Shown here: positions 5,258-9,016 of the stretch, one piece after another
Layout: each line of letters opens with the position of its first letter
Position numbering within the stretch: position 1 is the stretch's first letter
UHGV virus genome: UHGV-0124555
Length of the DNA stretch: 14,092 nt
Source: a virus
Direction: 5' to 3' (one strand)
The notes under the pieces: generated by a model
Seen by the model: only the letters and a program-made list of their open reading frames with translations
Told to the model about the DNA's origin: nothing
Database searches by the model: none
Translations under genes and position numbers: made by a program

Positions 5258-6292
5258 ATGTCGAAAAACTGGATGCGTCACTTTGAATTATTGCTTGTTG
5301 ATGATAAGGGCGACGGGATAAAAATTTCTGAGCTTAAAGTCACTTTCAATATTCAGAAAATGCCTGCGAGCATATTTAATGGATTCGTTGGAAATTTTAA
5401 GGTTTATAACCTGTCCCCTACCACTCAGAACCGGATTATGCAAAAGGAGTTTTCGCGTATACAGGTTATTGCCGGATACAAGGGGCAACCGGATGCAGCA
5501 GGTAATTATCCTGATGAAAACGTTGGTATGATATTCAATGGAGATATCCGTTTTACTGTCACTGGTAAAGATAATGCCACAGACAGTTGGATCATGTTGC
5601 AGTGTATTGACAGCTGGGAAGGTCACCTGAACGCAAGTGTGAAAACCACAGTGGCAGCTGGCTGGAAGTACAGCGATCTTTTCAGTCTGGGTATGAAATC
5701 ATTCGAACCATATGGCATCGAATCCGGTGCAGTTCCTGACATGCCGGAAACGGTATTTCCCAGAGGTCGCGTTGTTTATCAAAACACATCAAGGTTGATG
5801 AATCATATCGCAGGGCAGTGTAAAGCTAACTGGTGGTATGAAAATAATCTGGTAAATATTGTTCCTGAAGATAAATATATTGGTGTTGCTACGGTGTTGA
5901 ATGCTAACACCGGGCTTATCGGTATGCCACAGCAGACGATGGGAGCTGGCGTAAATGTCAGATGTCTGATTAATCCAAATATTAAGCTCGGTGGGCTTAT
6001 TCGTCTGGATCAGGCATCTGTATACCGTGCCTCTTTGAGTAATGACCAGGTAGCGAAATCGCCAGCACGACTGGATGAGTCTGAAAGCGACGGTAATCTC
6101 TACGTTAACGGTCTGCCAGGCATGTCACAGCCTGCCAGCATTAATACTGACGGTGATTACATTGTGGGCAGCATTGATTATACTGGCGACACCCGAGGGC
6201 AGGCGTGGTATATGGACCTGCTTTGCCTGGCTAAAGGTGGCAAAGAACTATTGGCAAAAGGCACTTTGGACAAAGTCGGAGATGTAGAGTGA
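5258..6292 (+). CDS. Putative baseplate hub protein (Mu gp44/P2 gpD-like) by synteny
   Basis: 344-aa ORF starting 3 nt after the previous stop. Size and position match the hub gene that precedes the spike in Mu-type tails. The 5' portion looks AT-rich relative to flanking tail genes, so a mosaic origin is possible. Confidence 0.45.
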   Translation: MSKNWMRHFELLLVDDKGDGIKISELKVTFNIQKMPASIFNGFVGNFKVYNLSPTTQNRIMQKEFSRIQVIAGYKGQPDAAGNYPDENVGMIFNGDIRFTVTGKDNATDSWIMLQCIDSWEGHLNASVKTTVAAGWKYSDLFSLGMKSFEPYGIESGAVPDMPETVFPRGRVVYQNTSRLMNHIAGQCKANWWYENNLVNIVPEDKYIGVATVLNANTGLIGMPQQTMGAGVNVRCLINPNIKLGGLIRLDQASVYRASLSNDQVAKSPARLDESESDGNLYVNGLPGMSQPASINTDGDYIVGSIDYTGDTRGQAWYMDLLCLAKGGKELLAKGTLDKVGDVE

Positions 6293-6624
6293 AAAAAGTA
6301 TTTTTTTGTTTATTCTTGGCCCTGCCGTTAACAGTTTCGGCGGCAACGCAGTGCGGACCATTCCGCTTTGATGCTGGTAATGATGGCCTCATGCACATCA
6401 ATGGTCAAAAGCCAGAAACACAAAAAATGACCTTTTTGAAACAAAAAGACGATTTCGATAATGTCATGATGCAATGGATGTTACCTGATCCTAATACTGG
6501 ACGTTGGTTAGGTATGGACTACATCAAACGAAACAAAAAAGCGATCCTCAACGTTGAAGTTATCCGCAAAAATATGGACGAGCCTCGGGAGTTCTGGACG
6601 TATGATTGCCGGAAGGTTAAATGA
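6289..6624 (+). CDS. Secreted/periplasmic protein of unknown function (accessory 'moron'); signal peptide MKKVFFCLFLALPLTVSA|ATQ
   Basis: 111-aa ORF with a GTG start overlapping the hub stop (GTGA). The N-terminus has a basic n-region, hydrophobic core and VSA cleavage motif, with no lipobox. The mature part has Cys near each end. The gene is visibly AT-rich and has its own terminator. Confidence 0.55.
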   Translation: MKKVFFCLFLALPLTVSAATQCGPFRFDAGNDGLMHINGQKPETQKMTFLKQKDDFDNVMMQWMLPDPNTGRWLGMDYIKRNKKAILNVEVIRKNMDEPREFWTYDCRKVK

Positions 6625-6639
6625 TCTTGCCCTCTCCGT

Positions 6640-6667
6640 AACCCACCGTCAGGTGGGTTTTTTGTTT
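6640..6667 (+). terminator. Rho-independent terminator after the signal-peptide gene
   Basis: Perfect 8-bp stem AACCCACC/GGTGGGTT with loop GTCA, followed by TTTTTTGTTT. The stop codon and last four codons (KKPT) of the convergent Mnt-like gene are encoded inside the hairpin and T-tract. Confidence 0.6.
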
Positions 6668-6969
6668 AGCAGTTCTCTCAACTTTTCGTTCTGCTCTCTG
6701 AACTTTTCCTGTATTTCTTTTTGCATGGCGATAACCTGGGCTTGAAGTTGAACTAGCGCATCAACATTTAGCGGAACCGAGACGCTGTTGATTTTGTCTG
6801 CTATTTCCCCAAGAGTATTTTCTGCATTCAAGGCATCTTCCAGTATCTGCACAATCTCTGAGTTCATTGATCTGCCGTTACGTTTAGCTCGTTCAGCTAT
6901 AGCATCTCGCATTCCGTCAGGAAAACGGAGGTTGAACTTGTCGTAGTCTTTTACTTGTTTTTCGGCCAT
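6649..6969 (-). CDS. mnt: Mnt-like ribbon-helix-helix (Arc/MetJ family) repressor with a C-terminal coiled-coil-like extension
   Basis: FNLRFPDGMRDAIAERAKRNGRSMNSEIVQILEDAL closely matches the P22 Mnt/Arc beta-strand and helix motif (FNxRxP ... NGRSxNSE), recalled from memory. The start is placed at ATG 6969 (MAEKQVKDYDKFNLRFP) rather than the ORF-track 6993. The C-terminal 60 aa are rich in Q/E/K/L. The gene is divergent from the arc-like gene, as in P22 immI. Confidence 0.7.
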   Translation of the reverse strand: MAEKQVKDYDKFNLRFPDGMRDAIAERAKRNGRSMNSEIVQILEDALNAENTLGEIADKINSVSVPLNVDALVQLQAQVIAMQKEIQEKFREQNEKLRELLNKKPT

Positions 6970-7076
6970 TGCAAATCTCTCAAAAAAAATCATGGTGCCA
7001 TATTGCCATATGATTTCAATGGTGGCATTATGGCCTTCATGGTGTCACTTTGGCACCAAATAAAGGAGATTAGATA
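6970..7076. promoter_or_regulatory. Divergent promoter/operator region between the mnt-like and arc-like genes (candidate Pant and Pmnt)
   Basis: Rightward candidate promoter: -35 TTGCCA (7003-7008), 17-bp spacer, -10 CATTAT (7026-7031). Leftward candidate -10 CATAAT sits on the - strand at 7027-7032. Repeats present: tandem TGCCATAT x2 (6996-7011), ATGGTG x3 (6992, 7019, 7039), and inverted pair GGTGCCA (6994-7000) / TGGCACC (7051-7057). AAGGAG RBS at 7063-7068. Confidence 0.4.
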
Positions 7077-7250
7077 ATGCAAGATACACTTTTCACTGAG
7101 CGCAAAAATATCAAACTCAACCTTCGCCTTCCATCACGGCTGAATGAAGACCTTCGCCGCCTGGCGGAAATGGACTGTATATCTCTGAACTCTGCAATTG
7201 TTCGTTTGCTGGCAAAAGGTGTTAGGGAAGAGGTGGCGAATGGTCGCTAA
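7077..7250 (+). CDS. arc: Arc-like ribbon-helix-helix repressor (57 aa; absent from the ORF track)
   Basis: Hand translation gives MQDTLFTERKNIKLNLRLPSRLNEDLRRLAEMDCISLNSAIVRLLAKGVREEVANGR*. AAGGAG RBS lies 8 nt upstream. The NLRLP beta-strand and SLNSAI helix follow the Arc pattern, and the gene sits directly upstream of the antirepressor-like gene as in P22 arc-ant. Confidence 0.7.
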   Translation: MQDTLFTERKNIKLNLRLPSRLNEDLRRLAEMDCISLNSAIVRLLAKGVREEVANGR

Positions 7251-7321
7251 AAACAGCGAAGCCCCGACAGCGGGAACTGGCGAGGCTTCTACATCAACAA
7301 ATCTGATCGGGAAATATTGAC
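7251..7321 (-). ncRNA. Candidate sar-like cis-antisense small RNA covering the antirepressor RBS and start codon
   Basis: Minus-strand candidate promoter inside the 5' end of the antirepressor gene: -10 TATACT (complement of 7328-7333), 17-bp spacer, -35 GTGAAA (complement of 7351-7356). Minus-strand terminator: stem GAAGCC (7258-7263) / GGCTTC (7284-7289) followed on the - strand by GCTGTTTTT. Predicted transcript is about 70 nt, analogous to P22 sar. Confidence 0.3.
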
Positions 7322-8200
7322 ATGAAAAGTATAGCAAAGACACAAAACGATTTCACCATCTTCAAATTCGGCGACAGTGAAATCCGCGTCATCAACAAGT
7401 GCGGTGAGCCGTGGTTTGTAGCTAAAGATGTTTGTGATGCTTTAGCTTTGACTAACTCACGCAAGGCGCTTACTGCACTTGATGACGATGAAAAGGGAGT
7501 AACTTTAAGTTACACCCTTGGTGGTGAGCAGAATTTAAGCATTGTGAGCGAATCAGGTATGTATACATTGGTTTTGCGCTGCCGCGATGCCGTCAATAAA
7601 GGTTCAGTCCCGCACAAATTCCGCAAGTGGGTAACAGCAGAAGTTCTGCCTTCAATTCGCAAATATGGCGAGTATGTGAAAGGCAAGAAAACCACAGTTG
7701 AAGAAAGAACACCGCTACGCGATGCAGTAAACATGCTGGTAGGAAAGAAAGGACTTCGCTATGACGATGCATACAATATGGTTCATCAGCGTTTTGGTAT
7801 TGACAGCATTGATGAACTTTCAATTGAACAAATCCCGCTGGCCGTAGAGTACATCCACAGGGTGGTGCTTGAAGGTGAGTTCATTGGCAAGCAAGAGAAG
7901 AAAGCAAACGAGCTTTCTGCAAAAGAAGCAAACAGTCTTGTATGGTTATGGGATTATGCCAACCGCTCACAGGCATTATTCCGCGAACTGTATCCGGCAT
8001 TAAAACAAATTCAATCGAACTATTCCGGAAGATGCTACGACTACGGTCATGAGTTTTCGTATGTTATCGGAATGGCGAGAGACGTTTTAATCAACCACAC
8101 ACGAGATGTTGATATCAATGAGCCAGGCGGACCAACGAATCTTTCCGCATGGGTAAGGCTTAAGAACAAAGAGTTGCCGCCTTCACTGCATCGCTACTGA
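7322..8200 (+). CDS. ant: Bro-N domain protein, putative antirepressor (P22 Ant-like); a KilA-N-type abortive-infection protein (BstA-like) is an alternative
   Basis: 292-aa ORF. The N-terminal about 110 aa carry the Bro-N signature ([32 protein letters not shown] ... LDDDEK). The C-terminal about 180 aa have no motif I recognise. The gene lies directly downstream of the arc-like gene and is visibly AT-rich. Confidence 0.6.
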
Positions 8201-8216
8201 CAATTGACAACTTAAC

Positions 8217-8242
8217 AAACCCAGCTTCTGCTGGGTTTTTTA
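8217..8242 (+). terminator. Rho-independent terminator after the antirepressor-like gene
   Basis: Perfect 8-bp stem AACCCAGC/GCTGGGTT with loop TTCT, followed by a T-run. The stem is nearly identical to the terminator at 6640-6667. Confidence 0.6.
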
Positions 8243-8260
8243 CTTTCTGGAGACATATGA

Positions 8261-9016
8261 ATGCCCGTTTCTTTAATCGCTCAACTTGGTAGCAAAGAAC
8301 AGGCCGATGTAAGACTTGCTGGCTCTGTCATGTCGGCGCTGCGTGTTTCTATGCCCGGCATCGTCCAGTCATTTGATCCGGACACGGTAACAGTGGTTGT
8401 TCAACCTGCGATTAAAGGCTATGAGCCGGACTCAAATGGAATCAACCAGTCGACGACATTACCCCTGCTGGTGGATGTACCAGTGGTATTCCCGCGCGGC
8501 GGAGGCTGTACGTTGACTTTTCCGGTTAAAGCCGGGGATGAATGCCTGGTGATTTTCGCCGACCGCTGCATCGATTTCTGGTGGCAGAACGGCGGGGTGC
8601 AGGAGCCTGTCGACGACCGGGTGCATGATTTATCGGATGCTTTCTGTATCGTCGGGCCGCAGTCTCAGGCGCAGAAAATAAGCGGAATAAGCACCAGTGG
8701 CGCGCAGCTGCGTACTGATGATGGCGCTGCGTTTGTGGAAGTGGCCGCAGGCCATAACATCACGGTTAAAACTCCCGGCGCGTTGACGGCGACAGCAGAA
8801 GGAGGAACCACGATCACATCACCCACCATCACGCTAAACGGCAACGTGACAATAAACGGGAATCTCTCTCAGGGGATGGGCGAAAGCGGCGGCACCGCGA
8901 CGATGCTTGGCCCTGTCACGGTGACTAACGATGTAAAAGCTGGTGGTAAGAGCCTGATGACGCACACGCACGGCGGAGTACAGACCGGCGGCGGTAACAC
9001 AGGAGCGCCTAACTGA
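8261..9016 (+). CDS. Baseplate central spike / assembly protein V (Mu gp45 / P2 gpV-like)
   Basis: 251-aa ORF with GGAGA RBS 7 nt upstream. The C-terminal half is Gly/Thr-rich and repetitive (TVKTPGALTATAEGGTTITSPTITLNGNVTINGN), like a beta-helical spike. It ends with an H-x-H motif (MTHTHGG), matching the metal-binding apex of gpV-type spikes. Confidence 0.7.
   Translation: MPVSLIAQLGSKEQADVRLAGSVMSALRVSMPGIVQSFDPDTVTVVVQPAIKGYEPDSNGINQSTTLPLLVDVPVVFPRGGGCTLTFPVKAGDECLVIFADRCIDFWWQNGGVQEPVDDRVHDLSDAFCIVGPQSQAQKISGISTSGAQLRTDDGAAFVEVAAGHNITVKTPGALTATAEGGTTITSPTITLNGNVTINGNLSQGMGESGGTATMLGPVTVTNDVKAGGKSLMTHTHGGVQTGGGNTGAPN

Follow-up and report, generated by a model that had tools for sequence, protein, structure and literature searches.

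The segment 6642-8242 of virus genome UHGV-0124555, within a window of 14,092 nucleotides (the whole stretch of DNA analyzed here), is by its sequence a full and apparently intact immI-type ('second immunity') module. Sequence comparison identified homologues of P22 mnt, arc, ant (over its C-terminal half) and the ant terminator, together with a probable sar homologue, and the module is accordingly made up of a Mnt-like gene, a promoter/operator region, an Arc-like gene, a sar-like RNA, Ant and a closing terminator (Table 1). We consider it likely that the slightly longer stretch 6625-8242 is immI-type cargo, which a lambdoid temperate myovirus prophage carries in a variable slot of its late tail operon. 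This is a known P22 module in a new location and not a new kind of system. The underlying biology is that of textbook P22 immI, which annotations of hundreds of E. coli prophages already include, and the value added here lies in the context. The initial annotation had proposed a portable, P22 immI-like secondary-immunity cassette that uses a tail operon as an insertion hotspot. This proposal is borne out by a slot that is empty or refilled in relatives and by copies in other phages, and it is further backed by the sar-like RNA and the P22-homologous ant terminator.

Table 1. Features of the cassette and of its flanking genes (window coordinates).
Feature	Coordinates	Strand	Evidence
Baseplate hub gene, conserved left flank outside the cassette	5258-6292	+	E217_GP41 1.8e-7; PHROG 196 'baseplate hub' 2.8e-80
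111-aa signal-peptide protein, conserved core neighbor of the hub, immediate left border of the slot	6289-6624	+	
17-nt junction filler, from the stop of the 111-aa gene to the cassette	6625-6641	.	Matches neither tail relatives nor Stx-phage copies
Terminator T1, left boundary of the module	6640-6667	+	Terminator scan; hairpin AACCCACC/GGTGGGTT and T-run
Mnt-like ribbon-helix-helix (RHH) repressor, 106 aa	6649-6969	-	Pfam Arc 1.8e-20; longest ORF start would be 6993
Divergent promoter/operator region (putative function)	6992-7058	.	Repeats, promoter-like sites, palindrome
Arc-like RHH repressor, 57 aa, first gene of the ant operon	7077-7250	+	Pfam Arc 1.4e-4
sar-like antisense RNA between arc and ant, with its end at the ant ribosome-binding site	7255-7320	-	Rfam RF00262
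Ant antirepressor, 292 aa, Bro-N and P22AR_C	7322-8200	+	Pfam Bro-N 7.5e-20, P22_AR_C 3.6e-29
Terminator T2, right boundary of the module	8217-8242	+	Terminator scan; homology to the ant terminator of P22
Baseplate central spike gene, conserved right flank	8261-9016	+	PF18352 N-terminal domain 1.1e-43; GpV Apex motif 4.4e-8

The three open reading frames of the cassette and the two flanking tail genes are arranged as originally described, with the Mnt-like gene on the minus strand and divergent from the arc-like gene. All three cassette frames are intact, and profile searches assigned their products to RHH/Arc or Bro-N/P22 antirepressor families. Over its RHH domain the Mnt-like protein shares 49% identity with P22 Mnt (1e-12), and it matches PDB entry 1mnt (1.4e-7), while its C-terminal half and that of P22 Mnt are unrelated; the 106-aa form is the one annotated by RefSeq in relatives. 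The Arc-like protein, whose Pfam Arc score of 22.1 bits exceeds the cut-off of 20.4, is 30% identical to P22 Arc (7e-6), and its gene lies 72 nt upstream of ant. Ant itself matches PHROG 245 'anti-repressor Ant' at 1e-110. More specifically, its C-terminal 171 residues (122-292) are 85% identical to residues 130-300 of P22 Ant (8e-113), and its N-terminal domain, a Bro-N (PF02498) covering residues 20-110, gives no alignment with P22 Ant and is unrelated to it. Since the C-terminal half of Mnt and the N-terminal domain of Ant are non-homologous to their P22 counterparts, these proteins may depart from those of P22 in their oligomeric state and in target specificity.

The region between the divergent repressor genes carries a cluster of candidate operators. 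The motif TGGTGNCA occurs 11 times in the whole window against 2.2 expected, a count reached in none of 200 shuffles, and four of these 11 matches fall inside 66 bp, at 6993, 7020, 7040 and, on the minus strand, 7051. A palindrome, TGGTGTCACTTTGGCACCA, is located at 7040-7058, in the same place relative to the arc start as P22 Omnt. Two promoters are predicted at the level of consensus matches: a Pant-like promoter with its -35 at 7003-7008 and its -10 at 7026-7031, and a Pmnt-like promoter with its -35 at 7056-7051 and its -10 at 7032-7027, so that the two -10 hexamers overlap. The terminator scan predicted no minus-strand terminator for the mnt transcript.

The sar-like RNA gave a full-length match to RF00262 at 30.2 bits (E 0.0021), which is below the gathering score of 43. 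It is preceded on the minus strand by a promoter-like site (7356 to 7328), contains a hairpin/T-run at 7278-7260, and folds into two hairpins with a z of -4.0. This fold is common to P22, a Hafnia locus and LWY24, and an alignment of five sequences, JLK-2012 included, contains four compensatory pairs. No sar match came up in Rfam searches of the Hafnia locus at E <= 0.1; the spacer there takes on the same two-hairpin fold.

The cassette lies between two terminator hairpins on the plus strand. Both were found where the initial annotation had placed them; they are not near-identical, as it had held, with 20 of 26 positions shared, a common AACCCA...TGGGTTTTTT and a different stem interior and loop. 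The mnt stop codon falls in the T1 loop, and in nearly all of the matches listed (294 genomes) E. coli homology to this mnt allele begins at 6639-6642. On the right, the DNA match to P22 extends to 8241, across the annotated ant terminator of P22. Homology to tail relatives ends at 6624 and resumes at 8233, inside the T2 T-run, which sets the insert proper at 6625-8242, from the stop codon of the 111-aa gene to the T-run at 8233-8242. Each of the five E. coli carriers has the same short filler at the left junction; among the 40 matches listed, one of the five carriers matched. No source for it was found among the tail relatives and Stx-phage copies compared, the latter being homologous from 6639-6642 onward.

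The surrounding operon is tightly coupled, as first noted, with gaps of -19 to +10 nt and two exceptions, the 1,636-nt slot and a gap of 156 nt. The latter precedes the tape-measure gene (a long-ORF call), and a relative has a small gene annotated there. The tail had been called Mu-type. Its components, a DUF3383 sheath, a KPP10_Orf10 tube, an E217_gp41 hub and a PF18352 spike, instead make it SEN34/E217-like, with the same set present in Salmonella phage SEN34 and in Klebsiella prophages. The closest relative, 98.5% identical over 3.9 kb, has a lambdoid backbone with a LexA-family repressor, cII, O/P, a nin region and Q. Neither the primary repressor nor Q is present in the window itself, and both are inferred from this relative, whose LexA-family CI-like repressor is a plausible target of Ant.

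Two lines of the original description were given up. The 111-aa secreted protein had been counted as part of the cassette; its gene overlaps the hub stop (GTGA) and follows the hub in most relatives, including those with other cargo (most of the 50 loci from other Enterobacterales, 25-74% identity), and it is a conserved core neighbor. The low GC content had been read as a mark of insertion. The dip already begins in the hub gene (44.7%) and is not specific to the cassette (44.3%), compared with 49.5% in the remaining upstream tail. Since the hub and the 111-aa gene (42.0%) are equally AT-rich, GC content is weak as evidence of insertion.

The comparison of relatives at the hub/spike junction, by contrast, found the cassette absent or replaced by unrelated genes in almost all of them, and the cassette is therefore cargo. 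The tail module is present in 373 of 5,426 complete E. coli genomes, and the ant-to-spike junction in five. Searching with the hub gene yielded 50 related loci from other Enterobacterales. Across 42 loci of other species the slot measured 8-2,820 nt, and in four loci of other genera (L017, L033, L046 and L048) it is essentially empty, with 8-91 nt between adjacent flanking genes. Elsewhere it holds DUF4282, a YafO toxin, an Mrr nuclease, Fic, a PD-Lambda-1-like protein, Imm_superinfect, Phd, or nothing, and a Hafnia prophage has a divergent immI there. Near-identical E. coli prophages differ in their content, with at least four cargo types among them; the cargo counts are approximate, since the cargo ORFs were called by a crude greedy pick. 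Each cargo variant examined has its own predicted hairpin/T-run directly before the spike ribosome-binding site, and the present cassette has predicted promoter-like and terminator-like sites of its own. An Ant cassette found in a tail operon should be annotated as cargo and not as a mis-assembly.

Copies of the cassette, bounded by the same hairpins, also occur in other phage settings. Stx-type phages have a copy of about 94% identity in their nin region, and further cassettes are found in the P22-like ejection-protein/tailspike slot and in a tape-measure/baseplate slot (E. coli KCJ3K291 prophage and Edwardsiella phage GF-2). The mnt-arc-sar-ant unit acts as a self-contained mobile block between terminator hairpins, found at no fewer than four different positions in the antiterminated operons of unrelated phage backbones.

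These occupancy patterns may have a wider meaning. We tentatively suggest, at somewhat less than even confidence, that SEN34-like temperate myoviruses across Enterobacterales use the slot as a general accessory-gene hotspot, in which recombination at shared 'AACCC...GGGTTTTTT' terminator hairpins would exchange cargo that includes both defense genes and, with immI as an example, offensive regulators. Family matches are lacking for many of the cargo proteins, so the slot could be mined for new defense or counter-defense systems, as the P2/P4 hotspots were, if this reading is true. In a limited literature search we found general hotspot papers and no prior description of this slot, which sits in a widespread group of enterobacterial myovirus prophages and may be worth a defense-gene survey.

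How the module might work can be proposed by analogy with P22, with the promoters and operators standing as consensus-level predictions. The P22 switch is built from Mnt, Arc, sar and Ant, and termination between ant and gene 9 is overridden by late antitermination. In a lysogen, Mnt made from Pmnt would bind the TGGTGNCA operators and keep Pant off, and thus no Ant would be made. Upon entry of the phage genome into a Mnt-free cell, or upon loss of Mnt, Pant would fire, and the resulting Ant could bind and inactivate the CI/LexA-family repressor of its own or of co-resident lambdoid prophages, favoring lytic growth. Arc would subsequently shut Pant down, and the sar RNA would pair with the ant ribosome-binding site and block ant translation. 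T2 would keep Pant transcripts out of the spike gene, and T1 would keep unmodified upstream transcription out of the cassette. Q-antiterminated late transcription is expected to pass both terminators, and this read-through would allow a terminator-flanked cassette to sit in the tail operon without polarity.

The same parts could serve mainly as an offensive or competitive device, in which Ant delivered on infection induces heteroimmune resident prophages or hampers rival phages, and in which presence in the slot reflects selection by inter-phage conflict and not control of the phage's own lysogeny. The defense-type content of the slot in relatives (the PD-Lambda-1-like protein, Mrr nuclease, YafO toxin, Fic and Imm_superinfect) and the movement of the cassette among unrelated backbones point this way, as does the action of P22 Ant on several lambdoid repressors. 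We find it rather unlikely that this is the main role; the idea overlaps with the preferred reading of an immI-type lysogeny module carried as cargo.

It is improbable that the cassette is an inactive relic of recombination that hitch-hikes and regulates nothing. Its rarity at the slot (five of the 373 module-carrying E. coli genomes) and the mosaic ant gene, whose middle part is unlike the Stx-phage copies, would fit such a relic. However, the three reading frames are intact, the Mnt-like and Arc-like proteins are 100% identical to those of Stx-type phages such as JLK-2012, the sar-like fold, the candidate operators and the two terminators are all preserved, and 294 E. coli genomes keep the mnt allele at 95-100% identity. 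Far less probable still is a module of the toxin-antitoxin or partition-like kind, in which RHH antitoxins would be paired with a toxic effector in place of an antirepressor switch, and we dropped this reading. The RHH proteins do also match FitA and HicB antitoxin profiles, the toxin-antitoxin genes YafO and Phd occur in the slot of relatives, and some PHROG names read 'partition protein ATPase'. The matches to the Arc/Mnt and Ant families, including the C-terminal half of P22 Ant, are much stronger, the sar-like RNA and the P22-type ant terminator are both specific to immI, and 'partition ATPase' is a RefSeq name borne by P22 mnt. Vertical inheritance as a native part of the tail operon, for which co-orientation with the operon and nothing further speaks, is refuted by the five-in-373 occupancy and the four empty loci.

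A direct comparison with P22 immI (NC_002371, 14.2-16.0 kb) confirmed the gene order and orientation noted at the outset, mnt(-)/arc(+)/ant(+)/tail gene(+), with two RHH repressors in both. Both have overlapping divergent promoters and a palindromic operator just upstream of arc (predicted here), an antisense RNA in the arc-ant spacer (here sar-like and below the gathering score), a shared C-terminal half of Ant and a homologous ant terminator. Both also lie in a late operon that is antiterminated (predicted here), just upstream of a tail gene whose product contacts the host surface. In contrast, the operators are unrelated (TGGTGNCA here; in P22, AGGTCCACGGTGGACCT and the Arc operator), Mnt has 106 aa against 83 aa in P22, and Ant begins with Bro-N where P22 Ant has an unrelated N-terminal half; P22_AR_N was detected in the Hafnia locus. 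The cassette has no sieA or orf59a, and its host phage is a contractile-tailed myovirus, whereas P22 is a podovirus.

The nin cassettes of Stx/lambdoid phages (JLK-2012, phage 2851 and Stx2a_WGPS8) are the same cassette with the same boundary hairpins, 94% identical over 6642-7337 and 91% over 7867-8242. They differ in the central part of ant and in sitting early, between ninE and roi/ninG, instead of in the tail operon. Phage GF-2 and the KCJ3K291 prophage likewise carry Arc-family repressors and Ant inside the contractile-tail operon of a lambdoid temperate phage. The GF-2 annotation, with mnt/arc/ant in the tail operon, precedes ours, and the arrangement is less novel than the initial annotation assumed. 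In these two the cassette is flanked by the tape-measure gene and the baseplate Dit-like/plug genes, unlike the hub/spike slot here, and GF-2 has its hub and spike genes directly next to each other. The description of Edno5, a relative of GF-2 (PMC6372524), names an ImmI region that comprises Ant, Mnt and Arc, in passages that state no position for it. Finally, the slot resembles the P2/P4 hotspots (Rousset et al. 2022, PMC9122126) in that conserved core genes flank content that changes between close relatives, and in that the cargo, known defense genes among it, brings its own promoter and terminator (predicted here), as morons do. Unlike those hotspots, it belongs to another phage lineage and another slot, and its cargo here is a lysogeny regulator and not a defense system.

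The 14-kb window is the late, tail-encoding end of a temperate myovirus prophage. Its structural genes are tightly packed, with spacings of -19 to +10 nt and two exceptions. The first is a stretch of 156 nt ahead of the long-ORF call for the tape measure, occupied in the closest relative by a small annotated gene; the second is a lone gap of 1,636 nt (6624 to 8261) that holds the P22 immI-type cassette. The tail had initially been described as Mu-type, but its type is that of Salmonella phage SEN34, Klebsiella prophages, and Hafnia phage yong1. The closest complete relative, in E. coli 5CRE51 (98.5% identity over 3.9 kb), is a prophage with a lambdoid regulatory backbone made up of a LexA-family CI-like repressor, a cro-like gene, cII, O/P, nin genes, and the Q antiterminator. 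It carries IntS, and its integration site adjoins a tRNA-Arg gene. In the closest relative (NZ_CP021175.1), the region beyond the DUF2612 gene (26378-32481) is unlike that of the window and contains a second, partial DUF2612 gene, an integrase gene fragment, and additional fibre genes, so the distal tail-fibre region there may be rearranged or composite.

Features of the tail operon and the immI-type cassette, in window coordinates
Feature	Coordinates	Strand	Description
Sheath, tube, tail chaperone, tape measure			In that order; DUF3383 (sheath), KPP10_Orf10 (tube)
Dit-like protein, plug, hub	5258-6292 (hub)		After tape measure; E217_gp41-like (hub)
Signal-peptide protein gene	6289-6624		111 aa; between hub and cassette
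Terminator T1	6640-6667	plus	Hairpin at left edge of cassette
Mnt-like	6649-6969	minus	Arc-type RHH domain (1.8e-20); 106 aa in RefSeq relatives
Arc-like		plus	57 aa; above Pfam Arc threshold; 30% identity to P22 Arc
sar-like RNA	7255-7320	minus	Rfam sar model; coincides exactly with arc-ant spacer
Ant	7322-8200	plus	292 aa; Bro-N (7.5e-20) and P22AR_C (3.6e-29)
Terminator T2	8217-8242	plus	Hairpin at right edge of cassette
Spike, baseplate wedge subunit	8261-9016 (spike)		After cassette; PF18352 N-terminal domain and apex motif (spike), PHROG 120 (wedge)
Baseplate J, DUF2612, tail fibre, fibre assembly protein			After wedge subunit; collar domain (tail fibre)
Integrase	after fibre assembly protein	opposite	

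The initial annotation described the three regulatory genes correctly. Profile searches returned Arc/RHH matches for both repressors, and the two domains listed in the table for Ant. The Mnt-like protein is 49% identical to P22 Mnt across the RHH domain and also matched PDB 1mnt. Over residues 122-292, Ant shares 85% identity with the C-terminal half of P22 Ant. The N-terminal domains are unrelated, so the target range may differ from that of P22 Ant; among solved structures, no sequence-related protein was found for Ant.

The regulatory DNA likewise resembles that of P22. Four TGGTGNCA sites lie within 66 bp of the mnt-arc intergenic region, and the whole window has 11 against 2.2 expected by chance, a count reached in no shuffle. 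One pair of these sites forms the palindrome TGGTGTCACTTTGGCACCA, located 18 nt upstream of the arc start codon, compared with 16 nt for the Mnt operator of P22. The predicted Pant-like and Pmnt-like promoters, for the ant operon and mnt respectively, are divergent with overlapping -10 hexamers. Both plus-strand hairpin terminators were found, although they are not near-identical as had been proposed (20/26 identity), and DNA comparison identified T2 as a homologue of the annotated ant terminator of P22. The mnt stop codon lies inside the loop of T1. Because the T-run of this hairpin is on the plus strand only, no intrinsic terminator was predicted for the minus-strand mnt transcript; if unterminated, this transcript would continue antisense through the 111-aa and hub genes.

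In P22, sar is an antisense RNA that blocks ant translation. The sar-like RNA of the window matches the Rfam model over its full length, with a score of 30.2 bits (E 0.0021) that is under the gathering score of 43. A minus-strand promoter-like site (7356->7328) places the predicted transcription start at the ant start codon, and a hairpin with T-run (7278-7260) marks the predicted end. The RNA folds into two hairpins (z = -4.0), and the same fold occurs in the arc-ant spacers of P22, a divergent Hafnia cassette, and an E. coli variant (z -5.0 to -5.3). A five-sequence alignment of the spacer, including that of Escherichia phage JLK-2012, contains compensatory changes at four base pairs.

The cassette occupies a variable slot between the 111-aa gene and the spike gene. 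Homology to related E. coli prophages extends up to the 111-aa stop codon (6624) and restarts at 8233, within the T-run of T2. The cassette is low in GC (44.3%), as initially noted, but the dip is not its own, because it starts already in the hub gene, and the hub (44.7%) and 111-aa (42.0%) genes are equally low. The 111-aa gene itself had been counted as part of the cassette; instead, its translation is coupled to that of the hub, and a homologue (25-74% identity) follows the hub in most of the 50 loci from other Enterobacterales that a hub-protein scan returned. The family (PHROG 3443, 134 homologues) is confined to Enterobacterales prophages and has two invariant cysteines. In some E. coli prophages, a different allele (62% identity) lies within flanks matching at 98-99%. 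The structure model is a confident eight-stranded beta-barrel with no informative structural neighbour. The baseplate operon here thus includes a gene for a periplasmic protein.

The tail module is present in 373 of 5,426 complete E. coli genomes, only 5 of which have the ant-to-spike junction. Other E. coli prophages with 97-99% identical flanks hold different cargo. One type is a DUF4282 membrane protein, whose junction is present in at least 26 genomes; the others are two unknown proteins together, or a YafO toxin with an unknown protein. Among the other Enterobacterales, the 111-aa gene and the spike lie 8 to 2,820 nt apart (median 960 nt, 42 loci), and four slots are essentially empty. 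Cargo families include YafO, tRNA_anti-like, Mrr nuclease, Fic, Imm_superinfect, and Phd antitoxin. Slot proteins of Dryocola and Erwinia match the C-terminal half of the PD-Lambda-1 profile, and several larger cargo proteins, each scanned singly, gave no match in Pfam or PADLOC. Uncharacterised cargo includes pairs of 266 and 126 aa (L003) and of 243 and 142 aa (L034). All filled slots examined end in their own AACCC...GGGTTTTTT hairpin just ahead of the spike ribosome-binding site. A hairpin of this type persists in one otherwise empty slot, that of a Rahnella prophage (L017, 7418-7482), where the terminator AAACCCGCCTTGTGCGGGTTTTTTT between the 111-aa and spike genes may be a scar of lost cargo; the three other empty slots have no hairpin/T-run terminator. 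A second variable gap separates the spike gene from the next baseplate wedge gene, which overlap by 1 nt in the window. It spans ~3 kb in Klebsiella (L009, 9305-12351) and ~0.7 kb in Dryocola (L044, 9539-10245), and in SEN34 (6647-6888) it holds one small extra ORF.

Across the five E. coli carriers, the left and right cassette junctions are identical, while the 111-aa gene and spike alleles differ. This fits a single insertion followed by homologous exchange. One carrier, E. coli LWY24 (L062, 1747-3325), has a different interior between the same junctions, with other alleles of Mnt (107 aa), Arc (53 aa), and Ant (304 aa) and an operator-like palindrome, AAGGCAATTTGCCTT, unlike that of the window. 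Therefore, more than one immI specificity occurs in one slot.

The same cassette recurs in other phage contexts. In JLK-2012, window positions 6642-7337 and 7867-8242 are matched at 94% and 91% identity, respectively, but there the cassette lies in the nin region rather than the tail operon; many Stx-converting phages also match both blocks. The mnt allele of the window is present in 294 E. coli genomes, and in nearly all matches listed the homology begins at 6639-6642, the foot of T1. Directly upstream of the JLK-2012 cassette is a P1-type antirepressor module (5313-6104) with matches to isrK (76.6 bits) and the C4 antisense RNA (75.1 bits). The ant gene of this module is truncated and joined at its 3' end to hairpin T1, so antirepressor systems of two kinds are direct neighbours. 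Elsewhere, the cassette lies in the classical P22-like position, flanked by ejection-protein genes and the tailspike. A second tail-operon slot, between the tape-measure gene and the Dit-like/plug genes of the baseplate, holds a cassette of this kind both in another E. coli myovirus-type prophage (NZ_CP054407.1, 2343-6393) and in Edwardsiella phage GF-2 (13970-15878). In the E. coli prophage, it is accompanied by a P63C-domain gene and other small genes. The publication on Edno5, a relative of GF-2, explicitly describes an ImmI region comprising Ant, Mnt, and Arc (PMC6372524). A Hafnia psychrotolerans prophage likewise carries a divergent immI in the hub/spike slot, with an extra membrane-protein gene beside it; its Mnt and Arc are 54% and 56% identical to those of the window, and its Ant combines P22_AR_N with P22_AR_C.

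Whereas the cassette parts were found in the DNA, their working is inferred by analogy with P22. In a lysogen, Mnt would keep Pant silent. Where Mnt is absent, Pant would fire and Ant would inactivate CI-type repressors, after which Arc and sar would limit Ant. T2 would keep Pant transcripts out of the spike gene, and T1 would stop transcription arriving from upstream before it enters the cassette; late transcription modified by Q would pass both. Such read-through would explain why operons under antitermination can accommodate the module and repeatedly contain it, as seen in the late operons of this phage and P22 and in the nin region of Stx phages, which depends on N.

Replacement in relatives and recurrence elsewhere uphold the initial reading of a portable P22 immI-like cassette in a tail-operon hotspot. 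As a source of uncharacterised cargo, the slot is the lead most worth following. Annotated genomes already include myovirus tail operons with immI cassettes, and the one described here places a known module in a slot that is new but belongs to a known kind of hotspot.
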